DNA of 64,000 bases from Candidatus Kaiserbacteria bacterium (lineage in GTDB: Bacteria > Patescibacteriota > Minisyncoccia > Phycocordibacterales > UBA918). Position numbers and translations under genes: made by a program. A model generated the notes under the pieces. That model was given only the letters and a program-made list of their open reading frames with translations, ran no database searches and had not been told where the DNA came from. Positions 2,335 through 44,144 of this stretch are shown here, piece after piece. The DNA is taken from positions 176,539 through 240,538 of the forward strand of contig JAHQWD010000003.1 in the NCBI GenBank assembly GCA_019634005.1, written 5' to 3'. Numbering within the stretch: position 1 is the stretch's first letter; each line of letters opens with the position of its first letter.

Positions 2335-5300
2335 TTAATCTAAGTTACCAGGCTTATTGAGGTAGATGATTGGAATCAATACCAATGTAATGATCACCGA
2401 GAAGGCGAGACCGAAGATGATTGCCCACGCAAGGGGAGACCAGAGGTCTGATACGTATGTCAGTGGAATCATACCGATCACCGTAGTAAGTGTGGTGAGA
2501 AGAATCGGACGAAGACGCGCAACAGCGGCTTCTACGACGTTTGTACGCAGGAGACGTTCTGGATGCTTTCTACGGTTTACGTTCATTTGATCAATCAGAA
2601 GAATGGAGTTATTGACCACAATACCCGAGAGCGCAATGAATCCCATGATAGAAGGGAAGGAGAGTGCCTTTCCAGTGATTGCGAGTCCCACCATAATTCC
2701 AATCAGAGAGAACGGAAGGATAGAAAGGACATAGAAGGTGTGTCGGAAAGAGTTGAACTGCAACACCAATACCGCAAGCATAAGGAGTACACCAACAATG
2801 AGTGCGAGGAACATATCACGGAATGCCTCAGCAGACTCTTCATTTTCTCCGCCAATATCAAGAGTGACGGAATCAGGGATATCTACATTGTCATAGACAC
2901 CATCAAGAAACGCAGAGGTTACCTCAACAAGGTTTCCAGTTGCCGTAAGGTCACTTGAGAGTTCAATAACACGCTCAGTATCATCATGGTTGATGACAGA
3001 ACTCGATTCTCGTACAGATACATCTGCCACCGATCCCACAAGTACTGAAGAGCCATCAGGGAGTGTCAGTGAAAGGTTCTCAAGTGCTTCAATGGTGGTA
3101 ATCGAAGTCTCTCGTGCGGTTGTGTAGTCTCGATTAAGCGCAAGCTTTACTACGATGTCAATGTCGTCAGTTGGTGTCGTGATACTTGTCGCCTCAGTAC
3201 CGTAGAGTGCAGTACGTAGTGTCGTGGCAATCGTATAGGGATTTAATCCAAGTGCCACTGCACGTGCTTTATTCAGGGTAAGCACAAACTCTGTACTGTT
3301 ATTCTGTGTTCCTGTACTTACGTTCGTCGTTCCTGGAATAGTCTTGAGATACTCTGCCGCGGCAAGGGTCGTCTCTGTCAGTTCCTCAAGATCGTCTCCC
3401 TTAAATTTCACCACAATCGGAGAGCCTGTAGGAGGGCCACCGTCAGGTTGCCCTGTACTTGTTTTGGCCTCACCAATATCGGAGAGCATGATACGGAGTT
3501 CCTCTACGATCTCAACACTTGTATGTTCCCGATCTGGGGTGAGGGTAATGAAGAAGTTTGCATACTTCTGTCCGTTTGTTCCACCACTGTTGCTTGCAAA
3601 CGCAGACGATGCACCTACTGTTGTCACGAAGGATTTAATTTCTGGGTGTGTGTAGAGAATTTCCTCCGCACGACGTGCAGAAATATCGGTTACTTCAAGT
3701 GCAGTAGCTTGTGGAAGTTCTAGTTCAGCATAGATCCAGTCAATATCCTCCTGATCAAAGAAGATAGACTTTACAACTCCCGTAATAGGAAGGGCAAGTG
3801 CCAACACAAATCCAATAACCAAGAATGTAACGAACCGAATTTTTTGCTTACGATTCTGTAGGAGTCTATCAATGCGAGTACGGTACCAGTCCTCAAGTTT
3901 ATGAGAGTAATATGCCTGCTTTTGCTCCAACTCTGTCTGGTTGCGACGCTTTAAGAAAAGAGAAGCAAAAAGAGGAATCAACCCCAGTGCCACGAGAAGG
4001 GAAGCAAAGAGCACAAAGTTAATGGTGAATGGAATAGCAGAGATAAACTGTCCAGAGACACCGCCGACAAGGAAAAGTCCCGAGAACATCGCAACGGTGG
4101 TGAGCGTTCCCGCAGTAAGTGGTGTATAGAACTCACGCACTGTTCTCAATGCTGCCTCCTTTTTATCAATGTTTGGATCCTGCTTCATTCGATGGTTAAT
4201 ACCTTCCACGACCACGATCGCAGAGTCCACCAAGATACCGACCGCCAAGATAAGGGCAAAAAGGCTCACAAAGTTGATTGTGTTTCCTGACGCATAGAGC
4301 CCAACGAAACCGATAGTAAAGGAGAGGGGAATTGCAAGACCCGCAAGTACTCCCTCGCGCCACCCAATAGCAAGGATGAGGAGGATAACCACAAGTAAGA
4401 CGGTCTGCATCCCAGACCGAGTCAGGTTCCAAAGGTCTTTTTTAATATCATTCCCAGAATCAAGAATCGTAGAGACAGTGAGTCCATCAAGAATCTCTCC
4501 AGGCTGTGAGAGTTCCGTAAGACGCTCATTCACTGATTCTGTGATTCGTGTAATATCTCCACCCCGAGACTTATACACGGACACAGAGATTGCTTTTTGT
4601 GATGGCTCCCCATTCTCACTGTAGCGAGAGAAGGTGCTTGCTTCTGCATATCCATCTTCGACGTATGCAATATCACGCACATAGACTGGTTGTCCACCAC
4701 GTGAAGCAACAGGAAGTGTTGCAATCTCTGTGGTGTCAGTGATGTCTCCTTCGAAAGCAACATTATAAATGATGCCGTTTGTGGTTACGCTTCCGACAGG
4801 TACGTTTGCATTTGCTGCAGAGATCCCGTTGACCACTTCTCCAAGAGTGAGATCAAATCGATCAAGTGCAGGCTGGTCGATAATCAAAGTCACTTCTCGA
4901 TTTCGTACACCAGCAAAGGTCACTCGGGAGACTGACGGTGTTCGTTCAAGTTGTGTCTCCAATTTATCACTGAGCGTAGAGAACTCTCCATCAGTAAGAT
5001 CGCCCGCAACCGCAATGGTCATAATCGGCTGGTCAACAAAGTTCACCTCAGAAACACGAGGGTCTTCGGCTTCAGAAGGGAGGTCAGGCAGAACAATATC
5101 AACCTTATCCTTTAGATCCTGAATCGAATCATCGATGTCTGCATCAGCCTCAAACTCTACAACGATACTCGAGACACCTTCTCGTGAACTTGAAGTAATT
5201 TTTGAGACATTCTCAAGATCCCCAGAGAGTCCCTGCTCAATTTTGTTCGTAATTAGCGACTCAATGTCTGCAGCCGCTGCACCAGGAAGGACAGTCGTTA

Positions 5301-5442
5301 CGACACCAACAGGTACCTGCACTTCTGGGGCAGATTCCTTGGAGATAGATGAGATAGAGAAAATCCCCGCTGCCGCAAGCGAGATGAGAAGCAGGAAACT
5401 GAACCTATTTTGTGTAATGAAGAATTTCCAGAAAGAATACAT
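2335..5442 (-). CDS. RND-superfamily efflux transporter permease (AcrB/AcrD/AcrF-like)
   Basis: 1035 aa with a 12-TM architecture, two large extracytoplasmic loops, and conserved RND TM4/TM10 regions. Confidence 0.9.
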   Translation of the reverse strand: MYSFWKFFITQNRFSFLLLISLAAAGIFSISSISKESAPEVQVPVGVVTTVLPGAAAADIESLITNKIEQGLSGDLENVSKITSSSREGVSSIVVEFEADADIDDSIQDLKDKVDIVLPDLPSEAEDPRVSEVNFVDQPIMTIAVAGDLTDGEFSTLSDKLETQLERTPSVSRVTFAGVRNREVTLIIDQPALDRFDLTLGEVVNGISAANANVPVGSVTTNGIIYNVAFEGDITDTTEIATLPVASRGGQPVYVRDIAYVEDGYAEASTFSRYSENGEPSQKAISVSVYKSRGGDITRITESVNERLTELSQPGEILDGLTVSTILDSGNDIKKDLWNLTRSGMQTVLLVVILLILAIGWREGVLAGLAIPLSFTIGFVGLYASGNTINFVSLFALILAVGILVDSAIVVVEGINHRMKQDPNIDKKEAALRTVREFYTPLTAGTLTTVAMFSGLFLVGGVSGQFISAIPFTINFVLFASLLVALGLIPLFASLFLKRRNQTELEQKQAYYSHKLEDWYRTRIDRLLQNRKQKIRFVTFLVIGFVLALALPITGVVKSIFFDQEDIDWIYAELELPQATALEVTDISARRAEEILYTHPEIKSFVTTVGASSAFASNSGGTNGQKYANFFITLTPDREHTSVEIVEELRIMLSDIGEAKTSTGQPDGGPPTGSPIVVKFKGDDLEELTETTLAAAEYLKTIPGTTNVSTGTQNNSTEFVLTLNKARAVALGLNPYTIATTLRTALYGTEATSITTPTDDIDIVVKLALNRDYTTARETSITTIEALENLSLTLPDGSSVLVGSVADVSVRESSSVINHDDTERVIELSSDLTATGNLVEVTSAFLDGVYDNVDIPDSVTLDIGGENEESAEAFRDMFLALIVGVLLMLAVLVLQFNSFRHTFYVLSILPFSLIGIMVGLAITGKALSFPSIMGFIALSGIVVNNSILLIDQMNVNRRKHPERLLRTNVVEAAVARLRPILLTTLTTVIGMIPLTYVSDLWSPLAWAIIFGLAFSVIITLVLIPIIYLNKPGNLD

Positions 5443-5448
5443 AGATAA

Positions 5449-6939
5449 CTACTCAGTTATACGGACACGCTGTCCGTCTGCTAACCCACGTGCATCAAGT
5501 ACGATGTTCCAATCTGGATTGATACCAGAGACAATCTCTACAGTATCGCTCTGTATATCACCAAGTTCTACTTCGTGTGCAACGAGCCTTTCATCTTCAA
5601 TGGTGAAGACATATGCCGTTGTCGTGGTGAGTTTAATTGCAGGAAGGGGTACACGAAGGACATCAAGTGGTTCACTCTCAGATATCTCAATCTCTGGATT
5701 GATAGAAAGTGACACAGAATCTCCGTTGGTCAGTTCTTCGCTCTCGATCTGAATCTGCACCTCGACTTTTCCTGTTGCTGGGTCAATGGCTGGGGCAACA
5801 CGGGAAACCGAACCTTCAAGATCCTTGTTAATAACAACGGGAGTGCCTACCGCAACACGGTCGCGCTCGTTTGCATTGATGTACGCGGTAATCTTCAGCG
5901 CATTGTTGTTTGCTATGTCTGCAATGGAATCAAAGGTATTCACAAAGTCACCCGCCTGCACTGCGACTCTATTCACCGTCCCCGCGATAGGTGTAGTGAT
6001 AACCGTCTTGTTGTATGCAGCCTGTGCTGCCTTAAGTCTTCCCAATGCCTGCTTCACGGCCGCATCGTTTGATGAAGTACCACTTTCTGATACCGCAATA
6101 TCATTGAGTGCAGTATCAATGTCCTGAATTGCTCCAGCAAGAGCATTACGCGCAGAGAGGAAAGCTGCCTCAGTTGTATCCTTTGTAGTCTGCGTGAAAG
6201 AACTGGTGACATCTTGACGAGAGACGATATATGCAATCTCTTCTACAAAGTTTGCGATACGTACTGTGTCGGTGCGCAATCCTTGCAGCTCTTGACCCAC
6301 GTTTGCTGCGGTAACGGTATTCTGTACTCCTGCAAGTGTGTCGAGAATATTCTCGATTGCGACACGCTCCTGTCCTAATTCTGGTGCACGGCCTAATCCG
6401 TCAAGGCGAAAGCCAGGGTACTGGGTGGTTGGACGGCTGAACTGGTCATCTACCGTATTACGCACGATAGAGTCGAGCGTAATATATACATCTTTGTACG
6501 TACTCACGGCATCAATAGTTGTTCCTGTGTTTGAGGCAAGCGCAGCCTCATAAGACCCCTCTGCTTGGAGAAGGGCGGCGTACTCGTCTGCATTTTCGAT
6601 CTGCGCGATTGTTTGCCCCGCACGCACCGTATCACCAATTGCTACTGACACTGAAGTGATTCGTCCTGAGGTCTCTGCCTCAAGTCGCGCCTCATCCACA
6701 GACTCTACAGTACCAATGAGTGCAATATTTCCTTCACGAGCAAGTTCGTTGACCGCTTTCAGTGAGACTTGCGGGAACTCGTTCTTTAGTTCGTTTATTT
6801 CCTCTACAGGTTCTCCGCCTGAAAAAGCGACAAAGAGAAGAATGATAACAACGATGGCGATGATAAGAGATCGCTTTTTGTGTGTACCTACAGTGTTCTT
6901 TATTCGAGTAATCATAATATTATGTGTTAATACCGTCAC
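5449..6939 (-). CDS. efflux-pump periplasmic adaptor (HlyD/membrane-fusion protein family)
   Basis: An N-terminal TM anchor is followed by a lipoyl-like motif (VESVDEARL...SGRITSV.VAIGDTVRAGQTIAQIE) and a long alpha-helical hairpin. It sits directly upstream of the RND pump. The ORF begins with GTG; the first ATG is at 6915. Confidence 0.8.
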   Translation of the reverse strand: MTVLTHNIMITRIKNTVGTHKKRSLIIAIVVIILLFVAFSGGEPVEEINELKNEFPQVSLKAVNELAREGNIALIGTVESVDEARLEAETSGRITSVSVAIGDTVRAGQTIAQIENADEYAALLQAEGSYEAALASNTGTTIDAVSTYKDVYITLDSIVRNTVDDQFSRPTTQYPGFRLDGLGRAPELGQERVAIENILDTLAGVQNTVTAANVGQELQGLRTDTVRIANFVEEIAYIVSRQDVTSSFTQTTKDTTEAAFLSARNALAGAIQDIDTALNDIAVSESGTSSNDAAVKQALGRLKAAQAAYNKTVITTPIAGTVNRVAVQAGDFVNTFDSIADIANNNALKITAYINANERDRVAVGTPVVINKDLEGSVSRVAPAIDPATGKVEVQIQIESEELTNGDSVSLSINPEIEISESEPLDVLRVPLPAIKLTTTTAYVFTIEDERLVAHEVELGDIQSDTVEIVSGINPDWNIVLDARGLADGQRVRITE

Positions 6940-7351
6940 TTATTTTCTTATGTAATGTTGCGAGCGTCTTCAACTCACTGTCGGACAATGGCGCAAAGGT
7001 TTTTGCCATATTCGTAGCCATTATACGTTCCATCTCTCCAAATTGTTCCTGACAATGTGGAGAGAGATGAAGATGGAAGAGGCGTTTATCTTGTTCATCA
7101 ACAACACGCTTCACCAGCCCTGCTTGTTCCAAGTTTTTAATCATTTGACTCACAGCACTCACCGTCACATCCAGCCGGTCCGCTAGTTCCTTTGTGCTAA
7201 TACCATCCTCGTCAAATATGGTATGTATCACCACCCACTCGGCAGGGGAAGAGATCGGAAGATCTTTTGGCAGTTGAGACAGACAACTAGAGACCTGCTT
7301 CTTTGTCTTTCGGATACTTTCAATAATAGACTTTATATATTCATCGCGCAT
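6920..7351 (-). CDS. MarR-family transcriptional regulator
   Basis: 143 aa with a winged helix (TKELADRLDVTVSAVSQMIKNLEQAGLVKR). It is the first gene of the marR, adaptor, RND pump operon. Confidence 0.75.
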   Translation of the reverse strand: MRDEYIKSIIESIRKTKKQVSSCLSQLPKDLPISSPAEWVVIHTIFDEDGISTKELADRLDVTVSAVSQMIKNLEQAGLVKRVVDEQDKRLFHLHLSPHCQEQFGEMERIMATNMAKTFAPLSDSELKTLATLHKKISDGINT

Positions 7352-7442
7352 ATGGTTAAGTAGATTATATAAGTAACTTAACTAATTGGGGGGCTTTGTC
7401 AATGTGTGTTGTGTACAGCGTCTGTGGTATCATAGCGCACAT

Positions 7443-7730
7443 ATGTTTGGAAAGATAAAAAGTTTTGCAACACGTAAGTTGCTTGAAAAGCAGATGAAAG
7501 ATGCTCCAAAAGAGCAACAAGAGATGGTAATGAAGATGTTCGAGCAGGATCCAGAACTGCTTGAGACCATCTCTAAAGAGATTGAAGCAGAGACCAAGAA
7601 AGGGCTCTCCCAGATGCAGGCTTCGATGAAAGTGATGCCAAAATATCAGGCACGTCTACAGAAACTTATGGGAGGACAGATGGGGCGTACTCCACAGGGG
7701 TTTAACCCGAATGGGACAATACGGAAATAG
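7443..7730 (+). CDS. hypothetical small helical protein
   Basis: 95 aa from the internal Met. K/E/Q-rich and not recognised as any family. Confidence 0.3.
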   Translation: MFGKIKSFATRKLLEKQMKDAPKEQQEMVMKMFEQDPELLETISKEIEAETKKGLSQMQASMKVMPKYQARLQKLMGGQMGRTPQGFNPNGTIRK

Positions 7731-7940
7731 TGTGGTACGGTAAAGTCTGTTGTCAACAAAAGGAGAGAAAGATGGAATCCATCTTCGCAATCGCTGGCTA
7801 GTCATCCGAAGCATATGAAGACGTCAGGGCAGCGGCCCGGCCAGAGAGATCTCTGAGCGATATTGTTCCTTCAGGGATTTCCACCCTTCCTTTCAACCCG
7901 GCCTCGCCTTGTGCGAGGCCTCTGTTATACTAGAGAACAT

Positions 7941-8522
7941 ATGGAAACAAAAAAGATACTTGTATTGCTTGGAAATGAAGATAAGGAGACATACACTGGT
8001 TCACTTGCAGATCTGTATGAACAGTCTGCGCGTGAGGCGGGACATGAGGTAAAACGTTTTAATATCGGAGACATGCAGTTTGATCCAATCCTGCATAAAG
8101 GATACAAAGTGATCCAAGAATTGGAACCAGACCTTCTTGCACTCCAAGAAGCATGGAAATGGGCTGACCACACACTCATTGTGTATCCAAACTGGTGGAA
8201 TACTATGCCTGCAATCCTTAAGGGACTCTTTGACCGTTTCTGGCTCCCAGGATTTGCATTTAACTTTGAAAAACCAAGCGGGAAACTTATTCAACACCTT
8301 AAAGGAAAGACCGCACGCGTGATCATTGTTGCGGGAACACATAGTCCATTCCAGACATGGTGGAAGTATGGAGACTATACCAATGAGATTAAGGAGGGAA
8401 TCTTAGAGTTTGCAGGGATCAAGACAAAGGTAACTGCGTTTGGACCACATCACTTTATGGATGAGAAGGCACATGCGAAGTGGGAAGATAAGGTGCGAAA
8501 GTTTGGAACAAAGGGAATCTAG
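7941..8522 (+). CDS. flavodoxin-fold NAD(P)H-dependent oxidoreductase (NAD(P)H dehydrogenase (quinone)-like)
   Basis: METKKILVLLGNEDKETYTGSLADLYEQSAREAGHEV...FDPIL resembles the Flavodoxin_2 / MdaB-KefF family. The domain starts at Met 7941 within the ORF that opens at 7863. Confidence 0.75.
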   Translation: METKKILVLLGNEDKETYTGSLADLYEQSAREAGHEVKRFNIGDMQFDPILHKGYKVIQELEPDLLALQEAWKWADHTLIVYPNWWNTMPAILKGLFDRFWLPGFAFNFEKPSGKLIQHLKGKTARVIIVAGTHSPFQTWWKYGDYTNEIKEGILEFAGIKTKVTAFGPHHFMDEKAHAKWEDKVRKFGTKGI

Positions 8523-8557: not shown

Positions 8558-9094
8558 AAGTTCCTTGTGATAGAAGAAAGGATGGACGGATGGAACTTCA
8601 CTCACTGGACGATACAGACACACGAGGATTACTCCTTAGCAAGAGAGTGAGTCTCACAAGCGATCTCACATGTTTCGTTGAGGACTACAAGGGGAAGTTT
8701 GAAGGTCGTAGCCACCTCATACGGTTGGTGCCTGTCCCTCAGGATTCCGTGCAAGAGTTCAAACAAGGTTTCCCCCAAGACACACACAATCGTGATAATT
8801 TTTTGCCTCTGCACCGTCTTGTCTGCAATGTTGCCTTTATCGCACAGATTCATTTCAGTCGCGAACGGCACCCGCTTCTGAATGATAAAGATTCCGCCTT
8901 CGTCTTTCCTTTCAGGAATGGCGAGCAATCTTTCAAAGCTATTAAGGTGCGGACATACTATGTTTCTGGTGGCAGGAAGAAGTGTCGCGTAGAATCAAGT
9001 CCGTTTCCTTACGGACTTAACGGCGGAGAGCGGATGGTGGAGATTGTACGTTGAGGATAGAAGCAAGATCCCGCGCAGTGGCGCGGGATCTTTT
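8558..9094 (+). ncRNA. candidate structured RNA of unknown class (alternative reading: orphan 154-aa ORF 8590-9054)
   Basis: A promoter lies upstream and a strong intrinsic terminator downstream. Both strands carry long overlapping ORFs, and the 154-aa product resembles no family. An internal hairpin is aagtccgtttccttacggactt. It could not be matched to RNase P, tmRNA or SRP consensus. Confidence 0.3.
9067..9094 (+). terminator. intrinsic terminator (gatcccgcgc-agtg-gcgcgggatc + TTTT)
   Basis: A perfect 10-bp GC-rich stem followed by a U-run. Confidence 0.7.
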
Positions 9095-9116
9095 CGTGTG
9101 CTACGCTACTTCGCAT

Positions 9117-10217
9117 ATGTCACTCAGTGTAGGAATCGTAGGGCTCCCGAACGTTGGAAAATCAACGCTTTTTAACGCACTCACCAAAAACACCGTTCCA
9201 ATGGAGAACTATCCCTTCTGTACCATTGATCCAACAGTAGGTGTGGTGCCTGTACCTGATAAAAAACTAGAGACACTCAACAAACTCTCTGGAAGTGAAA
9301 AAATGGTGCCTGCCATCGTAGAGTTCGTGGATATTGCAGGACTGGTGCGCGGTGCATCTGCGGGAGAGGGGCTTGGGAATAAGTTTCTCGCAAATATTCG
9401 AGAGGTGGACATGATTGCGGAAGTGGTGCGTATCTTTGAAGATGAAGGAGTGCATCATGTCTCTGGCGCAGTGGATCCGATGAGCGATATCGAGGTTATT
9501 AACCTAGAACTTATCATGGCGGATCAGGAGACGGTTGCAAAACGTATCTCAAATCTAGAGCGTGACGTAAAGCGAGGAGACAAAGAAGCGGTTGTAGAGA
9601 GTGAGGTGCTCACAAAAGTTCTTGCCACCCTTGAATCTGGAAAACTTGCAGGCGCAACCGAACTTACCAAAGAAGAACTGCTTCTCGCAAAAGGACTCCA
9701 TCTCCTCACGATGAAGAGGATTCTCTATGTGTTTAACCGCAAGAACGGAGCATTTAACCTTGACGAGCAGAATGACGAGCGGTGGCAAGAGCTTATGAGC
9801 TTCATAGAAGATAATAATGCAGAGTATGTCGTAGTGGATGCGGGGATAGAGCACGAGCTGAAGGACCTTGCCGAAGAGGAAAAGACGGACTTCCGACGAG
9901 AATACGGAACATTGGACTCTGGAATCGATTCACTCATCACTGCGTGCTACAGACTTCTTGGCTTAATGTCCTTCTATACAACAGGAGAGAAAGAAACACG
10001 TGCATGGACAGTGAAACAAGGTTCAACCGCTCCAGAAGCAGGTGCTGCGATCCATACGGACTTCAAAGATAAGTTTATCCGTGCCCAAGTCGTGTCATTT
10101 GAAGATTTTGTAGGAGTGGAGAGTATGGCGAAAGCACGGGAGACGGGGAAGTTACGCACGGAAGGAAAAGAGTATGTGGTGAAAGACAATGATATAATTG
10201 AGTTCATGCACAGCTAA
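9117..10217 (+). CDS. ychF: ribosome-binding ATPase YchF (Obg-family GTPase)
   Basis: The G1 motif GIVGLPNVGKST is present, with a C-terminal TGS domain. The start is at Met 9117 within the ORF from 9051. Confidence 0.9.
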   Translation: MSLSVGIVGLPNVGKSTLFNALTKNTVPMENYPFCTIDPTVGVVPVPDKKLETLNKLSGSEKMVPAIVEFVDIAGLVRGASAGEGLGNKFLANIREVDMIAEVVRIFEDEGVHHVSGAVDPMSDIEVINLELIMADQETVAKRISNLERDVKRGDKEAVVESEVLTKVLATLESGKLAGATELTKEELLLAKGLHLLTMKRILYVFNRKNGAFNLDEQNDERWQELMSFIEDNNAEYVVVDAGIEHELKDLAEEEKTDFRREYGTLDSGIDSLITACYRLLGLMSFYTTGEKETRAWTVKQGSTAPEAGAAIHTDFKDKFIRAQVVSFEDFVGVESMAKARETGKLRTEGKEYVVKDNDIIEFMHS

Positions 10218-34631: not shown

Positions 34632-34994
34632 ATGGAAACGACTATGGAGAAAAAGGAATATACAATTGATGCAACAGGAAAGCGTCTTGGACGTATGGCA
34701 ACTGAAGTGGCTACTATTCTTCTTGGAAAGAATGAGCCAGACTTCGCAAAGAATGTTGTTACTCCTGTATCTGTAACTATTCTAAACGCAAGTAAGCTTG
34801 ATATCTCTGAGAAGCGTAGAGAGGAAGAATTCCAGACATACTCTGGATACCCAAGTGGACGTAAGGTGGAGACACTTGGACATCTTGCGGAGCGTCGTGG
34901 GTACGCTGAGGTAGTACGTCGGGTAATCTCTGGCATGCTTCCAAAGAATAAACTGCATAAACTTCGTATGCAAAACCTAACCGTAACCGAGTAA
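34632..34994 (+). CDS. rplM: 50S ribosomal protein L13
   Basis: L13 motifs. The first ATG is at 34632; the ORF-track TTG at 34620 overlaps the end of rplQ. Confidence 0.9.
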   Translation: METTMEKKEYTIDATGKRLGRMATEVATILLGKNEPDFAKNVVTPVSVTILNASKLDISEKRREEEFQTYSGYPSGRKVETLGHLAERRGYAEVVRRVISGMLPKNKLHKLRMQNLTVTE

Positions 34995-35002
34995 TTATTT
35001 AT

Positions 35003-35404
35003 ATGGCAGAAAAACGATACATTGAGGCTGTAGGACGACGAAAGACCGCATCTGCGCGTGTCCGCATCACTCCTGCGAACGAAACGAGCATCGTGGTGAA
35101 CGAAAAGCCACTTGCAGAGTATTTCTCACTTGAGGCACATACTACTGACGTAGAGAGCGTGCTTAAGATAGAGGATGCAGGTATTGATAACTACACCATC
35201 ACTGCGAAAGTACACGGCGGGGGACTTTCATCACAGGCAGAGGCAATCAGGCTCGGTATTGCACGTGCACTTGTGAAAGAAAAGGAAGACCGACGTGTGC
35301 CGCTTAAGAAGGAAGGATTCCTTAAGCGAGACCCACGTTCTGTAGAGCGTAAGAAGTTTGGACTTCTCAAGGCTCGTAAGAAGCCAGCGTGGTCTAAGCG
35401 ATAG
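35003..35404 (+). CDS. rpsI: 30S ribosomal protein S9
   Basis: C-terminal ...KKPAWSKR. Confidence 0.95.
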   Translation: MAEKRYIEAVGRRKTASARVRITPANETSIVVNEKPLAEYFSLEAHTTDVESVLKIEDAGIDNYTITAKVHGGGLSSQAEAIRLGIARALVKEKEDRRVPLKKEGFLKRDPRSVERKKFGLLKARKKPAWSKR

Positions 35405-35410
35405 ACGAGA

Positions 35411-35432
35411 GGCTCCCGAGAGGGAGTTTTTT
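35411..35432 (+). terminator. intrinsic terminator ending the ribosomal-protein operon (ggctccc-gaga-gggag + TTTTTT)
   Basis: A hairpin plus T-run directly after rpsI. Confidence 0.7.
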
Positions 35433-35527
35433 GTTTATATATCTAAAGATGTGTTATGATTCACTTTATCAAGTTGCGCTGATACTAACCTTACGCAGGA
35501 CGTTTTTAACAATAAACTACCTACCGA

Positions 35528-36229
35528 ATGTCAGCACGACAAACTTCTAATTGGATATCACTCTCAGACATGATGACTGGTCTCATGCTAGTCTTTTTGC
35601 TAATTGCAATTATTACCATTTCTCAAGTATCAGAGAGAGAGTCTAAGAGAACTGAGTTAATTACAGAGTTTGAAAACACCAGATTAGAAATATATGAGGA
35701 ATTGGAGAAATCTTTTGGTGATAAACGTAGCGAATGGGGTATTGAAATATCGGAGGATCTGACCATTAAGTTTGAAAACCCGGATGTACTTTTTGGATAC
35801 CTGAGTTCGAATATCACGCCCTCATTCCGTGAAATTCTTAATGAATTCATTCCAAGTTATCTAGACATAGTTAATAGTGATAAGTATTCAGAAAAAATTA
35901 AAGAAGTGCGTATTGAAGGACATACTGCCGACTGGAGCGATTATTTGTTTACAATAAAACTCTCTCAAGAAAGATCTAACGCAGTGCTTGCGTACATATT
36001 CTCAAGTGATTACTTCTCGAGTTTGCCTTCAGAGAACAAGGAAAAGATTAAGTTTTGGTTTACTTCCAATGGGCTGGGAAATGGACGAACTCTAGATAGT
36101 GAGGGCGAGTTCACCTTTGAATCTAAGGGAGACGTAGACGTGAAGTCTAGAAGGGTTGAATTCCGTATCGTTACGAATAGTCAAGAACTTGTTGAGCAAA
36201 TTATAGATAATTTAAAAAATAACAATTAG
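35528..36229 (+). CDS. MotB/ZorB-like stator subunit (N-terminal TM with conserved Asp, C-terminal OmpA-like peptidoglycan-binding domain)
   Basis: The TM region is LSDMMTGLMLVFLLIAI, matching the MotB plug/TM motif. The OmpA-like segment reads VRIEGHTADWSD...LSQERSNAV...RRVEFRIV. Local GC is about 35%. Confidence 0.7.
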   Translation: MSARQTSNWISLSDMMTGLMLVFLLIAIITISQVSERESKRTELITEFENTRLEIYEELEKSFGDKRSEWGIEISEDLTIKFENPDVLFGYLSSNITPSFREILNEFIPSYLDIVNSDKYSEKIKEVRIEGHTADWSDYLFTIKLSQERSNAVLAYIFSSDYFSSLPSENKEKIKFWFTSNGLGNGRTLDSEGEFTFESKGDVDVKSRRVEFRIVTNSQELVEQIIDNLKNNN

Positions 36230-36232
36230 CAT

Positions 36233-37210
36233 ATGGATCTCTTTACTTTTATCTTTATACCCGCGTGGATACTATTTACTCTGTACATGCCTTATAAGTA
36301 TCGTTTTAGAGGCGTCCAAGAGGGGCAAATGCTTGCAACTGGTCTTGGTATCTTAGGAACATTTTTTGGGATTTTAGTTGCTCTATATAACTTTGATACA
36401 GCTCATATAGCAGAATCTGTGCCGTTACTGCTTGATGGTCTAAAATTTGCCTTTGCCACCTCCGTGGTTGGGATGGGTTATTCACTGTACATAGGCCTTT
36501 TCCCAGAAAAATTTGAACCTGACCAATCTTCAATTGATCCAAAGGACAAGAAAGAGTCTGAACTACTTGCTGAAATGCTTGAAGAGATGAAGGCACTAAA
36601 TGGGAACATTTCCGGAGAAAATGATACGACACTCATAACTCAAGTTCAAAAGTTAAGAACAAGTGTTACTGACAAGCAGGACGAACTCAAAAAATCTTTT
36701 GATGACTTTGCAAAAGAGATGGCAGAGAACAACATGAAGGCTCTGGTTGAAGCAGTTGAAAAAGTCATGGAGGATTTCAATGCAAAAATTAATGACCAGT
36801 TGGGGGAGAACTTCAAGAGACTTAGTGAGGCAGTTGAAAATCTTGTTGTCTGGCAAGATCAGTATCGCGAACAGCTTACAGTTTCTGTTGAAATGCTGAC
36901 AAAAACAAGCGAGTCTGTAGATAAATCTTCAGAATCTATCGCGACGTTTACTGACCGCGCTAAAGAATTTGATGCTAGTGCAGAGAAATTGAAGGAGTCC
37001 CTGGAAACAATCGGAGCCTCAATGACTGGACTCAAGAATCTTGCAGACACCTTAGAAGATAGCGGGAAGAAAATTCGAAATGAAATGAGTGAGATTACTA
37101 AGCAAAATATCACTGAACTAGGAGAAAACTTAAAAGGTATCTCAGAAAAACTAGTCGAAGACTATAGCTACCTGCAGAAGATGATGCAGACTGTTCTTGA
37201 TAAAAAATAA
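36233..37210 (+). CDS. MotA/ExbB/TolQ-like proton-channel protein with a ~200-aa C-terminal coiled-coil tail (ZorA-like)
   Basis: 3 TM helices (LATGLGILGTFFGILVALYNF; FAFATSVVGMGYSLYIGLF). Residues about 100-325 are a heptad-rich helix. The start is 3 nt after the MotB-like stop. Confidence 0.65.
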   Translation: MDLFTFIFIPAWILFTLYMPYKYRFRGVQEGQMLATGLGILGTFFGILVALYNFDTAHIAESVPLLLDGLKFAFATSVVGMGYSLYIGLFPEKFEPDQSSIDPKDKKESELLAEMLEEMKALNGNISGENDTTLITQVQKLRTSVTDKQDELKKSFDDFAKEMAENNMKALVEAVEKVMEDFNAKINDQLGENFKRLSEAVENLVVWQDQYREQLTVSVEMLTKTSESVDKSSESIATFTDRAKEFDASAEKLKESLETIGASMTGLKNLADTLEDSGKKIRNEMSEITKQNITELGENLKGISEKLVEDYSYLQKMMQTVLDKK

Positions 37211-37212
37211 GC

Positions 37213-37983
37213 ATGGAAAAACGGCTTATTGATACAAATGGATGGGGACTTGTTCTAGATACAATTGGTGCGGAGAAAGCTGAGTTCAGTTTTCTGAACA
37301 AAGAAAATCGTGTAAGACATGAGAAATTTAGTGCAAATGGTATTGAGTGGTCTGAGGTACGCAAGTTACGTGAGACATTTAAATCAGAACACCCGTTTAT
37401 TGATGCAGAAGGAAGACCATTTGTATTGTTTATTTACGATCAAGCAGCTGCAAATTGGAGAGATAGCGATAGAGAATACAAATATCATTTTTGTTGGTGT
37501 AGCACTCTAGAGACCATGCAGGACTTCGGTCGAAGGGGGAGGTATAAACCAAAATATGATGTAGATAACAACACCTTTACAGTGAATAGAGGTAATTCTG
37601 ATGAGCTCAGAGAAATGAACGTTTGTAAAAACTGTCTCAGAAAAATGGATTTCAAAGGATATGGGCATACTACTTATCAAAAGAAAACTTTAATTTATAG
37701 TGAGTTTGATATTGCGTATTTCTTTTCTCTTAAATTGCCACAAGATTTACTAAAACCTACACATCCATTTCATACAGGTAAATACACCTCTGACTGGAAA
37801 CAGGTTAGAGAGAAAATCATCATGGAACGTGGTGGTAAATGTGAGACGTGTGGAACTGTCAATCATTTGCAAGTGCACCATATAAACGGTATCAAAGACG
37901 ATAATTCTTCTTCAAACCTCAAGGTACTTTGCTACACTCACCATTCTGAACAACCTATGCATGGACATATGCGCCAACTTTGA
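37213..37983 (+). CDS. HNH-endonuclease-domain protein (ZorE-like effector candidate)
   Basis: The C-terminal motif is CETCGTVNHLQVHHINGIKDDNSSSNLKVLCYTHH (C-x2-C...HH...N...H). The N-terminal ~190 aa are unassigned. The start is 2 nt after the MotA-like stop. Confidence 0.7.
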   Translation: MEKRLIDTNGWGLVLDTIGAEKAEFSFLNKENRVRHEKFSANGIEWSEVRKLRETFKSEHPFIDAEGRPFVLFIYDQAAANWRDSDREYKYHFCWCSTLETMQDFGRRGRYKPKYDVDNNTFTVNRGNSDELREMNVCKNCLRKMDFKGYGHTTYQKKTLIYSEFDIAYFFSLKLPQDLLKPTHPFHTGKYTSDWKQVREKIIMERGGKCETCGTVNHLQVHHINGIKDDNSSSNLKVLCYTHHSEQPMHGHMRQL

Positions 37984-38007
37984 CACCACCCTTTTTTCAC
38001 GATACAA
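37979..38007 (+). promoter_or_regulatory. grpE-dnaK promoter TTGACA-N17-TACAAT, overlapping the HNH gene stop codon
   Basis: Consensus hexamers read directly from the sequence. The same TTGACACCA...TACAATG arrangement recurs upstream of dnaJ. Confidence 0.5.
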
Positions 38008-38037
38008 TGCCAGCACTAAATACTTTTGGAAGTAGCT

Positions 38038-38592
38038 ATGTCAGATGAAAAACATACAGAAGAGGAGGTTTTTGAAGATGCTCCGTCTGAAGATATGGAG
38101 ATAGAGGATATAGAGGAGGCAGAGGGAGATAAGCTTAAAACGCTTCGCGATAAGCTTCGAACATGCGAGGAAGAGAAACGCGGACACCTTGAAGAACTCC
38201 AGCGCACCAAGGCAGACTTTTTAAATAGCAAGCGTCGCCTTGAGGAGCAGTTAGAGAGAGACAAGGAGCGTATCACTGAGAAGCATATCGAAACACTTCT
38301 TCCACTCGCTGACAGCTTCGATATGGCCATGGCAGACCCCTCGTGGGAGAGTTGTGACGAGAAGTGGCGGAAAGGAATAGAAGGGGTATTTGCACAGTTA
38401 CAAGGAATACTAAAAGGACACGGAGTAGAGAAGGTGGGAGCGTCTGGAGAGACATTTGATCCAGAAAAGCATGAGGCAGTCTCCAACGCTCCTGGAGAAG
38501 AGGGAAAGGTGGTAGATGTTTTACAAGCAGGATATACGGCAGGAGGTCGTATCATCCGTCCCGCAAAAGTTATCGTCGGGGTTAAGAGTTAA
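38038..38592 (+). CDS. grpE: nucleotide exchange factor GrpE
   Basis: The coiled-coil N-terminus and the C-terminal GYTAGGRIIRPAKV motif. The ATG is at 38038; the ORF-track TTG is at 38026. Confidence 0.85.
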   Translation: MSDEKHTEEEVFEDAPSEDMEIEDIEEAEGDKLKTLRDKLRTCEEEKRGHLEELQRTKADFLNSKRRLEEQLERDKERITEKHIETLLPLADSFDMAMADPSWESCDEKWRKGIEGVFAQLQGILKGHGVEKVGASGETFDPEKHEAVSNAPGEEGKVVDVLQAGYTAGGRIIRPAKVIVGVKS

Positions 38593-38602
38593 GTAACGAA
38601 AT

Positions 38603-40492
38603 ATGTCAAAAATACTTGGAATTGATCTTGGAACTACAAACTCAGCATTTGCTGTGATTGAAGGAGGAGAGCCAACTATCATCGAGAACGCAGAAGGAAA
38701 TCGTACGACTCCATCTGTTGTTGCTATTTCAAAGACGAAAGAGCGTCTCGTTGGACAGATTGCAAAGCGCCAGGCGGTAACAAACCCAGAGAATACCATT
38801 TACGGTATTAAGCGCTTCATGGGACACAACTTTGATGAAGAGGCTGTCCAGAAGGACAAGGAGGTTGTCCCATACGAGATTAAAAAGGGAGAAGATGGAG
38901 GTGTTATCGTACACATGGGAGAGCAGGACTATCGCCCAGAGGAGGTGTCTGCAATGATTCTCTCTAAGATTAAGGCGGATGCTGAGGCAAAGATTGGTGA
39001 GAAGATCACTGAGGCAGTTATCACCGTGCCTGCGTACTTTAATGACGCACAGCGTAAGGCGACACAGGATGCAGGGAAGATTGCAGGACTTGAGGTGAAG
39101 CGAATCATCAACGAGCCTACTGCAGCTGCACTTGCGTACGGATTTAATAAAAAGAAGGATGAGCAGATCGTCGTATTCGACTTCGGAGGAGGAACCTTTG
39201 ACGTCACCGTACTTGAGGTAGGGGATGACGTTATTGAAGTAAAGGCAACTGACGGAGACGCACACATGGGAGGACGCGATATCGACCAGCAGATTGTGCG
39301 CTTCCTCATCGAAGAGTTTAAGAAGTCTGAGGGAATTGATCTTGCACAGGATAAACTTGCGCTTCAGCGTCTTGATGAGGCTGCAGAGAAGGCAAAACTA
39401 GAGCTCTCTTCATCAGGCGAGACAGAGATTAACATCCCATTCATCACTTCAGGAGCAGAAGGGCCAAAGCACATGCTCCTTACCATGACCCGTGCAAAGC
39501 TTGAGGAGCTTGCGCAAGAATATATTGACCGCTCTATCGAGATCACCAAGCGTGCGCTTGAGGCATCTCCATTCTCTAAAGAGGATATTGATGAGATTAT
39601 CCTTGTGGGAGGACAGACACGTATGCCAATGGTGCAGAAAGCGGTACAAGATCTCTTTGGTAAAGAACCAAACCGAACTATTAACCCTGATGAGGTGGTA
39701 GCACTTGGTGCCGCGCTTCAGGCAGGTATCTTCCAAGGAGATGTGCAGGACATTACGCTTGTAGATGTGATTCCACTTTCACTCGGTATTGAGACCATGG
39801 GATCTGTTGCGACCAAACTTATCGAGAAGAACACCCATATCCCAACCAAGAAGGAGCAGGTGTTTTCTACCGCAGCAGATAACCAGACATCGGTAGAGGT
39901 ACATATCGTACAAGGAGAGCGCCCAATGGCGGCAGACAACAAGTCTCTCGGACGGTTCGTACTTGAGGGTATTCCACCAGCACCACGTGGTGTACCGCAA
40001 ATTGAGGTATCACTTGATGTGGACTCTAACGGTATCCTAAACGTAACTGCAAAGGATAAGAGTACTGGGAAGGAGCAGTCTATCCGTATTGAGGCAAACT
40101 CTGGTCTTACCGAAGAAGATATTGAGAAGATGAAGAAGGATGCAGAAGAGCATGCAGGAGAGGATGCGAAGAAGAAGGAGATTATTGAAGTACGCAACCT
40201 TGCAGACCAGATGATCTACACTGCAGAGAAGTCTCTCAAGGACTTTGGAGATAAAGTGGACGCGGCAGTGAAGACTGGTATTGAGGAGAAGGTAACTGCA
40301 CTGAAGGAAGTAAAGGATAAAGAAGACATGGAGGCTATCAAATCTGCAACTGAAGCACTCTCTACAGAGATGCAGAAGATAGGGGAGGCGATGCAGAAAG
40401 AACAGGCTGAGGCACAGCCAGAGGCGCCACAAGAAGATGGTGTGCGGGACGCAGAAGTTGAAGAAGAAAAGAAAGACGAGGATAAAGAGTAG
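38603..40492 (+). CDS. dnaK: molecular chaperone DnaK (Hsp70)
   Basis: [10 protein letters not shown] and DLGGGTFD motifs. Confidence 0.97.
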
Positions 40493-43757: not shown

Positions 43758-44144
43758 ATGAAAAAGGATTTCGATGGCTGGAATCAAGACAAAAAACAAA
43801 TCCAAGAAAGGGAGGATATCCTGTTTTATAAACAAAGAGAAGTGAGATGGTGTCGTCTTGGCGTAAACGTTGGTTTTGAGCAGGATGGAACGGGCACCGC
43901 TTACGCACGCCCAGTTCTCATATTAAAAGGTTTTAGCAAGCATGCTTGTCTGGTTGTTCCTTTGACCACATCAACAAAAGAAAATCCCTACCATGTATCT
44001 GCAGGAAAGATTGAAAGGAAAGAAGCCTTTGCAATAATCTCTCAAATAAAATGTATTGATACAAGAAGACTCGACCAGAGACTTGGGTGGGTAGAGAAAC
44101 CAAATTTTAAGAAAATACAAAAAGCAATTAAAGACATGCTCTAA
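43758..44144 (+). CDS. PemK/MazF-family toxin-like protein (orphan; no adjacent antitoxin found)
   Basis: The sequence ARPVLILKGFS...CLVVPLTTSTK is characteristic of the MazF/PemK SH3-like barrel. GC is about 39%. Confidence 0.55.
   Translation: MKKDFDGWNQDKKQIQEREDILFYKQREVRWCRLGVNVGFEQDGTGTAYARPVLILKGFSKHACLVVPLTTSTKENPYHVSAGKIERKEAFAIISQIKCIDTRRLDQRLGWVEKPNFKKIQKAIKDML

Follow-up and report, generated by a model that had tools for sequence, protein, structure and literature searches.

We analysed a 64-kb window (45.6% GC) from a Candidatus Kaiserbacteria contig; all coordinates refer to this window and to its + strand. Between the genes rpsI and grpE, the window contains three co-directional genes: zorB (35528-36229, 233 amino acids), zorA (36233-37210, 325 amino acids) and zorE (37213-37983, 256 amino acids). 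An initial annotation of the sequence had placed all three open reading frames (ORFs) exactly, including their common + strand. It had also given the spacers correctly, as 3 nucleotides (CAT) between zorB and zorA and 2 nucleotides (GC) between zorA and zorE, which results in the junctions TAG-CAT-ATG and TAA-GC-ATG. No Shine-Dalgarno-like sequence is present upstream of the zorA and zorE starts, making a coupling of the three genes by termination and reinitiation plausible. We consider it very likely that the three genes form an intact Zorya anti-phage system of type II, that they lie on a 2.5-kb horizontally acquired cassette, and that they belong to a distinct lineage with the gene order zorB-zorA-zorE (B-A-E).

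Components of the locus

Profile searches assign all three proteins to type II Zorya. The best PADLOC matches are ZorB2 for the zorB product (PDLC00641, 2.3e-68, over the whole profile length), ZorA2 for the zorA product (PDLC00637, 1.7e-73) and ZorE2 for the zorE product (PDLC00642, 8.1e-43). The Zorya-specific profiles reach 228-246 bits, and the type I profiles ZorA1 and ZorB1 match more weakly. The best NCBIfam matches are likewise ZorB2, ZorA2 and ZorE, the last at 1e-28. Among solved structures, sequence searches return the type II ZorA5B2 complex of Sulfuricurvum kujiense (PDB 8VVI) as the best match, at 1.5e-42 for ZorA (8VVI_F) and 6.9e-40 for ZorB (8VVI_A); ZorB matches a type I structure (8QYD_F) at 8.6e-10. 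The type II identity proposed in the initial annotation is borne out by profile, structure-sequence and comparative evidence, which agree, and standard tools with PADLOC profiles would probably flag the locus. The general Pfam models that it had named (MotA_ExbB, OmpA and HNH) do match, but always below the gathering threshold: MotA_ExbB scores 20.0 bits against 22.9, OmpA 24.2 against 27.2 and MotB_plug 15 against 24, and HNH_3 is sub-threshold at 19 bits.

ZorA has the expected MotA/ExbB/TolQ-type core of three transmembrane (TM) helices, followed by a long helical tail. In the AlphaFold2 model, with a mean predicted local distance difference test score (pLDDT) of 76.7, the TM helices comprise residues 3-22, 28-52 and 59-89. 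The tail starts with a helix at 108-126, breaks at the conserved NISGxNDTTL motif and continues as a single helix from 136 to 324. This helix of about 189 residues is roughly 28 nm long, and the conserved tip motif LGxNLxxISEKLVxDY (296-311) lies near its C-terminal end. A Foldseek search with the model returns 8VVI_C first, followed by type I ZorA structures. Across 66 homologues T43 is invariant and S77 nearly so; the alignment to 8VVI_F likewise shows them conserved, and they are candidates for a polar ring facing the ZorB Asp.

ZorB contains a single, N-terminal TM helix that carries the conserved Asp (LSD14MM), and its C-terminus is OmpA-like, both as annotated. The stretch WISLSD14MM aligns to D21 of S. 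kujiense ZorB, with which the protein shares the TM Asp, a short linker and the OmpA-like domain, and the Asp is kept in all 80 aligned ZorBs. The translation start at ATG 35528 is backed by the alignment of homologues. In the automated annotation of the source contig, zorB begins only at Met15 (35570, 219 amino acids), which cuts off Asp14.

The OmpA-like domain contains the residues E130-G-H132-T133-A134-D135, R187 and R208/R209. In E. coli ZorB II, the corresponding motif is E139-G-H141-T142-S143-x-D145, and the mutations H141A, S143A, R215A and R230A each lead to loss of defence and of peptidoglycan binding (PMC11890865). H132, R187 and R208/R209 align with H141, R215 and R230, and the Asp, His and Arg residues on which defence depends are conserved between the two proteins. 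Ser143 of the E. coli protein is replaced by Ala134 in the window, which in the alignment stands out as the one departure among the functionally tested residues. S. kujiense ZorB has EGHTSS where the window has EGHTAD, and about 8 residues following the motif are absent from the window protein.

ZorE combines an N-terminal DUF8245 region (PF26739 in the precomputed annotation), with a Zn site formed by H92, C96, C138 and C141, and a C-terminal HNH domain. The canonical motif C210-x2-C213...H222-H223...N235...H244 is present as annotated, including the catalytic His and the metal ligands; the complete set of HNH residues is C210, C213, H222, H223, N225, K228, N235, L236, C240, H244 and H250. 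Invariant in 46 homologues are H92, C96, C138, C141, Y191, C210, C213, H222, H223, N225, N235, L236, C240 and H244. Residues H92, Y191, H223, K228, N235/L236, H244 and H250 align with H90, Y189, H226, K231, N238/L239, H247 and H253 of E. coli ZorE, mutation of which abolishes Zorya II defence (PMC13192584). The AlphaFold2 model has a pLDDT of 81.7 and a predicted template modelling score (pTM) of 0.70. Its C-terminal part gives local Foldseek matches to McrA, Cas-HNH, GVE2 HNH and the Gme nicking HNH, as well as to zinc ribbons. A sequence search of ZorE against the PDB returned nothing, and the fold search found no solved counterpart for the DUF8245 part.

The three components are the same as in the Zorya II system of E. 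coli ATCC 8739, with the defence residues of ZorE conserved (PMC11890865, PMC13192584). The window locus differs in having no Druantia III neighbour, and its ZorE has no C-terminal nuclease-like extension. The protein ends at the same position as its closest relatives, and its C-terminus is therefore not truncated. Two other ZorEs of the B-A-E clade, those of L006 (Saccharibacteria, 7122-8213) and L090 (an unclassified contig, 9055-10152), have a C-terminal extension of about 100 residues and a total length of 363-365 amino acids.

The B-A-E lineage

The inverted gene order noted in the initial annotation is real: zorB, zorA and zorE follow one another on one strand. To place it, we surveyed GTDB, with one genome per species, using an alignment of ZorA, which yielded 80 loci. 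Six metagenomic relatives (38-70% ZorA identity) and the window's own protein were added, and phmmer was used to classify the ORFs for ZorA, ZorB and ZorE at each locus. The B-A-E order is found in 15 loci with 11 distinct sequences (the window contig, L002-L006 and L082-L090). All 77 other loci have the order A-B(-E); these are 71 genome or metagenome loci with both genes and six viral-contig loci from IMG/VR. In neighbour-joining trees the 11 distinct members form one clan, with bootstrap values of 20/20 for ZorA, 20/20 for ZorB and 10/20 for ZorE. Their grouping in these trees indicates that the order is a clade trait and not a local rearrangement. It differs from the zorABE order typical of type II, an order that has been described as "typical" and not as definitional (PMC11946911).

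The lineage is marked by its gene order, by the shortest ZorA tails in the family, by tightly coupled genes without Shine-Dalgarno sequences, and by a change in the ZorB motif. All 11 distinct B-A-E ZorBs have EGHTA[D/E/N], with a deletion of 4-8 residues directly after it, whereas the A-B-E ZorBs have EGHTS[S/T]. The 10 further distinct loci, at 38-73% ZorA identity, keep the motifs and the tight gene spacing. A ZorE with DUF8245 is encoded by 14 of the 15 loci; the remaining one, L004, is a contig of only 1.8 kb that breaks off within the locus.

The initial annotation had given canonical ZorA as about twice as long and considered the window protein a miniature. Such a length does hold for type I ZorA, which has about 700 residues and is the source of that figure. 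In E. coli NCTC 9026 ZorABCD it comprises 729 residues, with a cytoplasmic domain between TM1 and TM2 (PMC11946911). The solved type II ZorA of S. kujiense has 378 residues, with the tail formed by residues 100-378 (Mariano, Deme et al. 2025, PMC11890865). Window ZorA is 53 residues (14%) shorter; in common with the S. kujiense protein it has the 3-TM core, the proximal part of the tail and the motif at its tip, and an internal distal-tail segment is absent. E. coli ATCC 8739 ZorA II is longer than 402 residues, with mutants described up to E402 (PMC11890865), compared with 325 in the window.

In our sample ZorA2 length varies continuously between 318 and 817 amino acids. B-A-E ZorAs have 322-382 residues (median 339) and A-B-E ZorAs 318-817 (median 437). 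The window protein is at the short end of a continuum and is not a half-size miniature. The short B-A-E ZorAs are without internal distal-tail segments, with TM core, proximal tail and C-terminal tip motif all retained. We rejected the possibility that window ZorA is a truncated protein, as its C-terminal tip motif is kept and its length class is common to the whole clade. Across the family, the length of the type II ZorA tail spans about 2.5-fold. Proteins of this type with 715-817 residues and very long tails are found in L008, L010, L018, L076 and L078, and these tails look internally repetitive in the alignment.

The named hosts of B-A-E loci are all Patescibacteria: Kaiserbacteria (2), Paceibacterota and Saccharibacteria (2). 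Six of the 11 members are located on unclassified metagenome contigs, two of which are 762 and 847 kb long. The searchable literature contains no report of Zorya in Patescibacteria or the candidate phyla radiation (CPR). A published survey of tail length was based on RefSeq and left out loci with any but the canonical gene order (Hu et al. 2025, PMC11946911), and would therefore have missed the B-A-E lineage. The suggestion that the system had probably not been described can be kept in part. Zorya itself is known, and the existing ZorA2, ZorB2 and ZorE2 profiles match strongly; it is the Patescibacteria B-A-E lineage, with its hosts, gene order and fixed Ser-to-Ala change, that appears to be undescribed.

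In the relatives, the cassette is found at a different place in each genome and adjoins defence-type genes, in line with the defence-island context that the initial annotation had proposed to look for. The neighbours include MmeI-type and EcoO109I restriction-modification systems, AAA_13 with Abi_C, KAP NTPase, SocA_Panacea, Mrr, a resolvase and a Y1 transposase. Viral carriage of the clade was considered and rejected: the six IMG/VR Zorya II loci are all A-B-E and at most 35% identical, and none belongs to the clade.

A composite locus is present in L018 (Candidatus Poribacteria, OY762492.1, 5971-12948). It consists of zorA2 (817 amino acids), zorB2, a second zorB2 without a TM helix, and zorE, followed by a zorB2-zorA2 pair that runs off the fetched locus. 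This pair was rejected as the source of the B-A order in CPR bacteria, since its ZorB carries EGHTSS and falls among the A-B-E proteins, which makes it an independent event. In eight loci with a ZorA2-ZorB2 pair (L041, L050, L064, L066, L072, L074, L075 and L081), mostly from Proteobacteria, the fetched downstream sequence contains no ZorE homologue. These pairs may use a different effector.

Host and insertion site

Database records assign the ZorA and ZorE sequences to a 379-kb contig of a Candidatus Kaiserbacteria bacterium, which NCBI taxonomy places in the Patescibacteria group, Parcubacteria group. The cassette, delimited by its GC deviation and by homology breakpoints, extends over about 2.54 kb (35437-37978). 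It was correctly recognized as AT-rich relative to its flanks, but its GC content is 37.8%, not the claimed 35% or so. The other 2.5-kb stretches of the 64 kb have 45.6 ± 1.2% (z = -6.7), and the cassette is the sole stretch below 40%. Upstream are the genes rpsD, rpoA, rplQ, rplM and rpsI, and downstream is grpE-dnaK-dnaJ.

Both boundary elements named in the initial annotation are present. On the left, the intrinsic terminator of the rpoA-rplQ-rplM-rpsI operon (35411-35436), a CTCCC-GAGA-GGGAG hairpin followed by a T-run (35413-35436), forms the edge of the conserved flank; it folds with -23.1 kcal/mol (z = -7.5 against shuffled sequences). On the right, the grpE promoter TTGACA-17-TACAAT (37980-38008) matches the consensus at 11 of 12 positions. 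The stop codon of zorE (TGA, 37981-37983) lies inside the -35 hexamer of this promoter.

A GrpE scan of metagenomes identified close relatives of the host, among them L091, L092, L093 and L095. Identity to the host is 89% for RpsI, 91% for GrpE and 98% for DnaK in L091 and L092, 78-93% in L093 and 51-79% in L095. The arrangement rpoA-rplQ-rplM-rpsI-[gap]-grpE-dnaK is kept in all of these and Zorya is present in none, and the cassette is therefore an insertion. In L091 and L092 the rpsI-grpE gap contains one ORF of 174 amino acids (L091, 5378-5902). In L093 it contains an ORF of 148 amino acids with a TM segment (4755-5201) and one of 199 amino acids with a signal-like N-terminus (5273-5872), and in L095 it consists of about 470 bp without an ORF (5502-5970). 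A Pfam search of these alternative ORFs gave no matches. This comparison suggests that the gap is a small hotspot with variable content in related Kaiserbacteria genomes.

The breakpoints can be located in the same genomes. DNA homology with L091, L093 and L095 extends across the rpsI terminator and is lost after about 35436; on the right it resumes at TTTGACACCACCC (37979). TTTGACA does not vary among the four genomes compared, the Zorya-free ones included, and the -35 hexamer TTGACA is therefore ancestral. The zorE stop codon is supplied by this ancestral grpE element. The GC deviation, the breakpoints and the cassette-free relatives confirm the claim of a horizontally acquired cassette between terminator and grpE promoter.

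A search for flanking direct or inverted repeats (35300-38150) found only short matches at chance level, and there is no integrase or transposase gene in the cassette. Our guess is that it was inserted by homologous replacement via the conserved rps and dnaK flanks. In the Logan assembly of run SRR12681089, one contig (L001) ends 6 nucleotides past the zorE stop, and another (L140) begins 74 nucleotides before the grpE ATG. This assembly break falls exactly at the right junction of the cassette (about 37964-37989), and alleles with and without the cassette may coexist in the sample.

A candidate extended -10 element for the cassette, TGtTATGAT (35452-35460), can be read directly from the sequence. 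It was missed by the consensus promoter scan owing to its weak -35, and a similar element, TGTTATGGT, is found at the equivalent position in L091. The Rfam scan of 34900-38700 gave a single sub-threshold chance match.

Proposed mechanism and competing explanations

In characterised Zorya systems, ZorA5B2 is an ion-driven motor whose ZorB binds peptidoglycan upon perturbation of the envelope, rotation of the ZorA tail transmits the signal, and the nickase ZorE is recruited to the complex at the membrane, where it damages DNA (PMC11890865, PMC11946911, PMC13192584). Type I systems share the ZorAB motor logic, the tail transmitter and peptidoglycan binding as the proposed trigger; their effectors are ZorC and ZorD instead of an HNH protein (PMC11946911). 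By homology to 8VVI, ZorA and ZorB of the window would assemble into a 5:2 ion-driven membrane motor. A phage perturbing the envelope would cause the OmpA-like domain of ZorB to engage peptidoglycan, and ion flow past Asp14 would then drive ZorA with its cytoplasmic helical tail. The activated complex would recruit or activate ZorE, an HNH nickase that would damage DNA at the entry site. Our analysis establishes the homology, the conservation of functional residues, the insertion and the structure of the clade; how the complex assembles, what triggers it and that it acts against phage we infer from the type II systems already characterised, and the finding reveals no new mechanism. The three genes span 2.46 kb, counted from the zorB start codon to the stop of zorE, which places the cassette among the smallest complete Zorya systems and makes it handy for structural and reconstitution work.

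Several points weigh against an intact, functional type II Zorya of a Patescibacteria lineage. The NCBIfam equivalog cut-offs are not reached (ZorB2 122 of 400 bits, ZorA2 131 of 700, ZorE 100 of 600). The product names of the ZorA-like and ZorE-like proteins at NCBI, "hypothetical protein" and "HNH endonuclease", are consistent with scores this far below the cut-offs. An Ala occupies the position of E. coli ZorB II Ser143 in 11 of 11 B-A-E members, and the promoter and terminator scan of the locus found no strong promoter before zorB and no terminator after zorE. The anti-phage function of the lineage is assigned by homology. With six of 11 members on unclassified contigs, a clade confined to Patescibacteria is not proven. 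Zorya is reported to be under-represented in single-membrane bacteria (PMC11946911), so the system need not work in the envelope of a CPR cell.

The change at the ZorB pocket also allows a refinement of the type II assignment, which we regard as possible but tentative: the system could be derived from Zorya and adapted to sensing in monoderm cells. The altered pocket would read a different wall cue, and the swapped gene order and short tail would fit ultrasmall CPR cells. Patescibacteria envelopes are wall-proximal and free of an outer membrane, and the named B-A-E hosts all belong to this group. We take S. kujiense to be a diderm campylobacterote, unlike the CPR host of the window. The motif is EGHTA in all B-A-E ZorBs and EGHTS in A-B-E members, with the 4-8 residue deletion in addition, and S143A in E. 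coli ZorB II eliminates peptidoglycan binding and defence (PMC11890865). Activation has been proposed to depend on the distance from the inner membrane to the peptidoglycan, and Zorya is rare in monoderms (Hu et al., PMC11946911); the clade also has the shortest ZorA tails of the family. However, all these differences could be neutral synapomorphies of a single lineage, and the sample holds no monoderm lineages outside the clade that would show convergence. For the type of envelope in CPR bacteria we rely on the literature, and with H132, R187 and R208/R209 unchanged, ordinary peptidoglycan binding is plausible.

The proposed model of Zorya activation, in which ZorB gains access to peptidoglycan only once a phage disturbs the envelope, was built on diderms, and a coherent Zorya II lineage in Patescibacteria with a fixed change at a residue essential for peptidoglycan binding in E. 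coli offers a natural comparison to test it. Defence repertoires of CPR bacteria are generally thought to be sparse. If the adaptation to monoderm cells is true, envelope sensing by Zorya would not need the gap between inner membrane and peptidoglycan of diderms, and CPR bacteria would have a Zorya branch of their own, invisible to RefSeq surveys restricted to the canonical order.

It is improbable that the cassette is a remnant, inactive or in decay, that was brought in by recombination and is no longer selected for defence. The cassette has no recognisable strong promoter or terminator of its own, its last gene depends on a host -35 hexamer for the stop codon, and the equivalent of Ser143 is lost, all of which would fit such a remnant. 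The three ORFs are nevertheless intact, both here and in 10 other distinct loci with ZorA identities down to 38%, and motifs and tight spacing are kept. ZorE ends as it does in its relatives, and the Ala is fixed across the clade and not sporadic.

A housekeeping MotAB/ExbBD/TolQR-type motor for motility, import or envelope maintenance, standing beside an unrelated HNH gene, is very improbable: the weak Pfam matches (20 bits for MotA_ExbB, 24 for OmpA, 15 for MotB_plug) that could suggest it are all sub-threshold against 228-246 bits for the Zorya-specific profiles, the best solved relatives are ZorAB and not Mot, Exb or Tol proteins, the HNH partner with DUF8245 recurs in 14 of 15 B-A-E loci, and the closest relatives of the host are without these genes altogether. 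The 5:2 motors of this type share with the window proteins a distant TM-core fold and the Asp on the TM helix of the B subunit. The window system has no torque or TonB/TolA interface; it has a long C-terminal tail and a nuclease partner instead. No flagellar, Tol-Pal or TonB genes are present in the annotated ±10 kb around the locus, and the initial annotation was right on this and in judging a role in motility or import unlikely.

Elsewhere in the window, a gene for a 128-residue PemK-type toxin lies at about 43758-44144, some 6 kb downstream of the cassette, between tRNA-synthetase genes.

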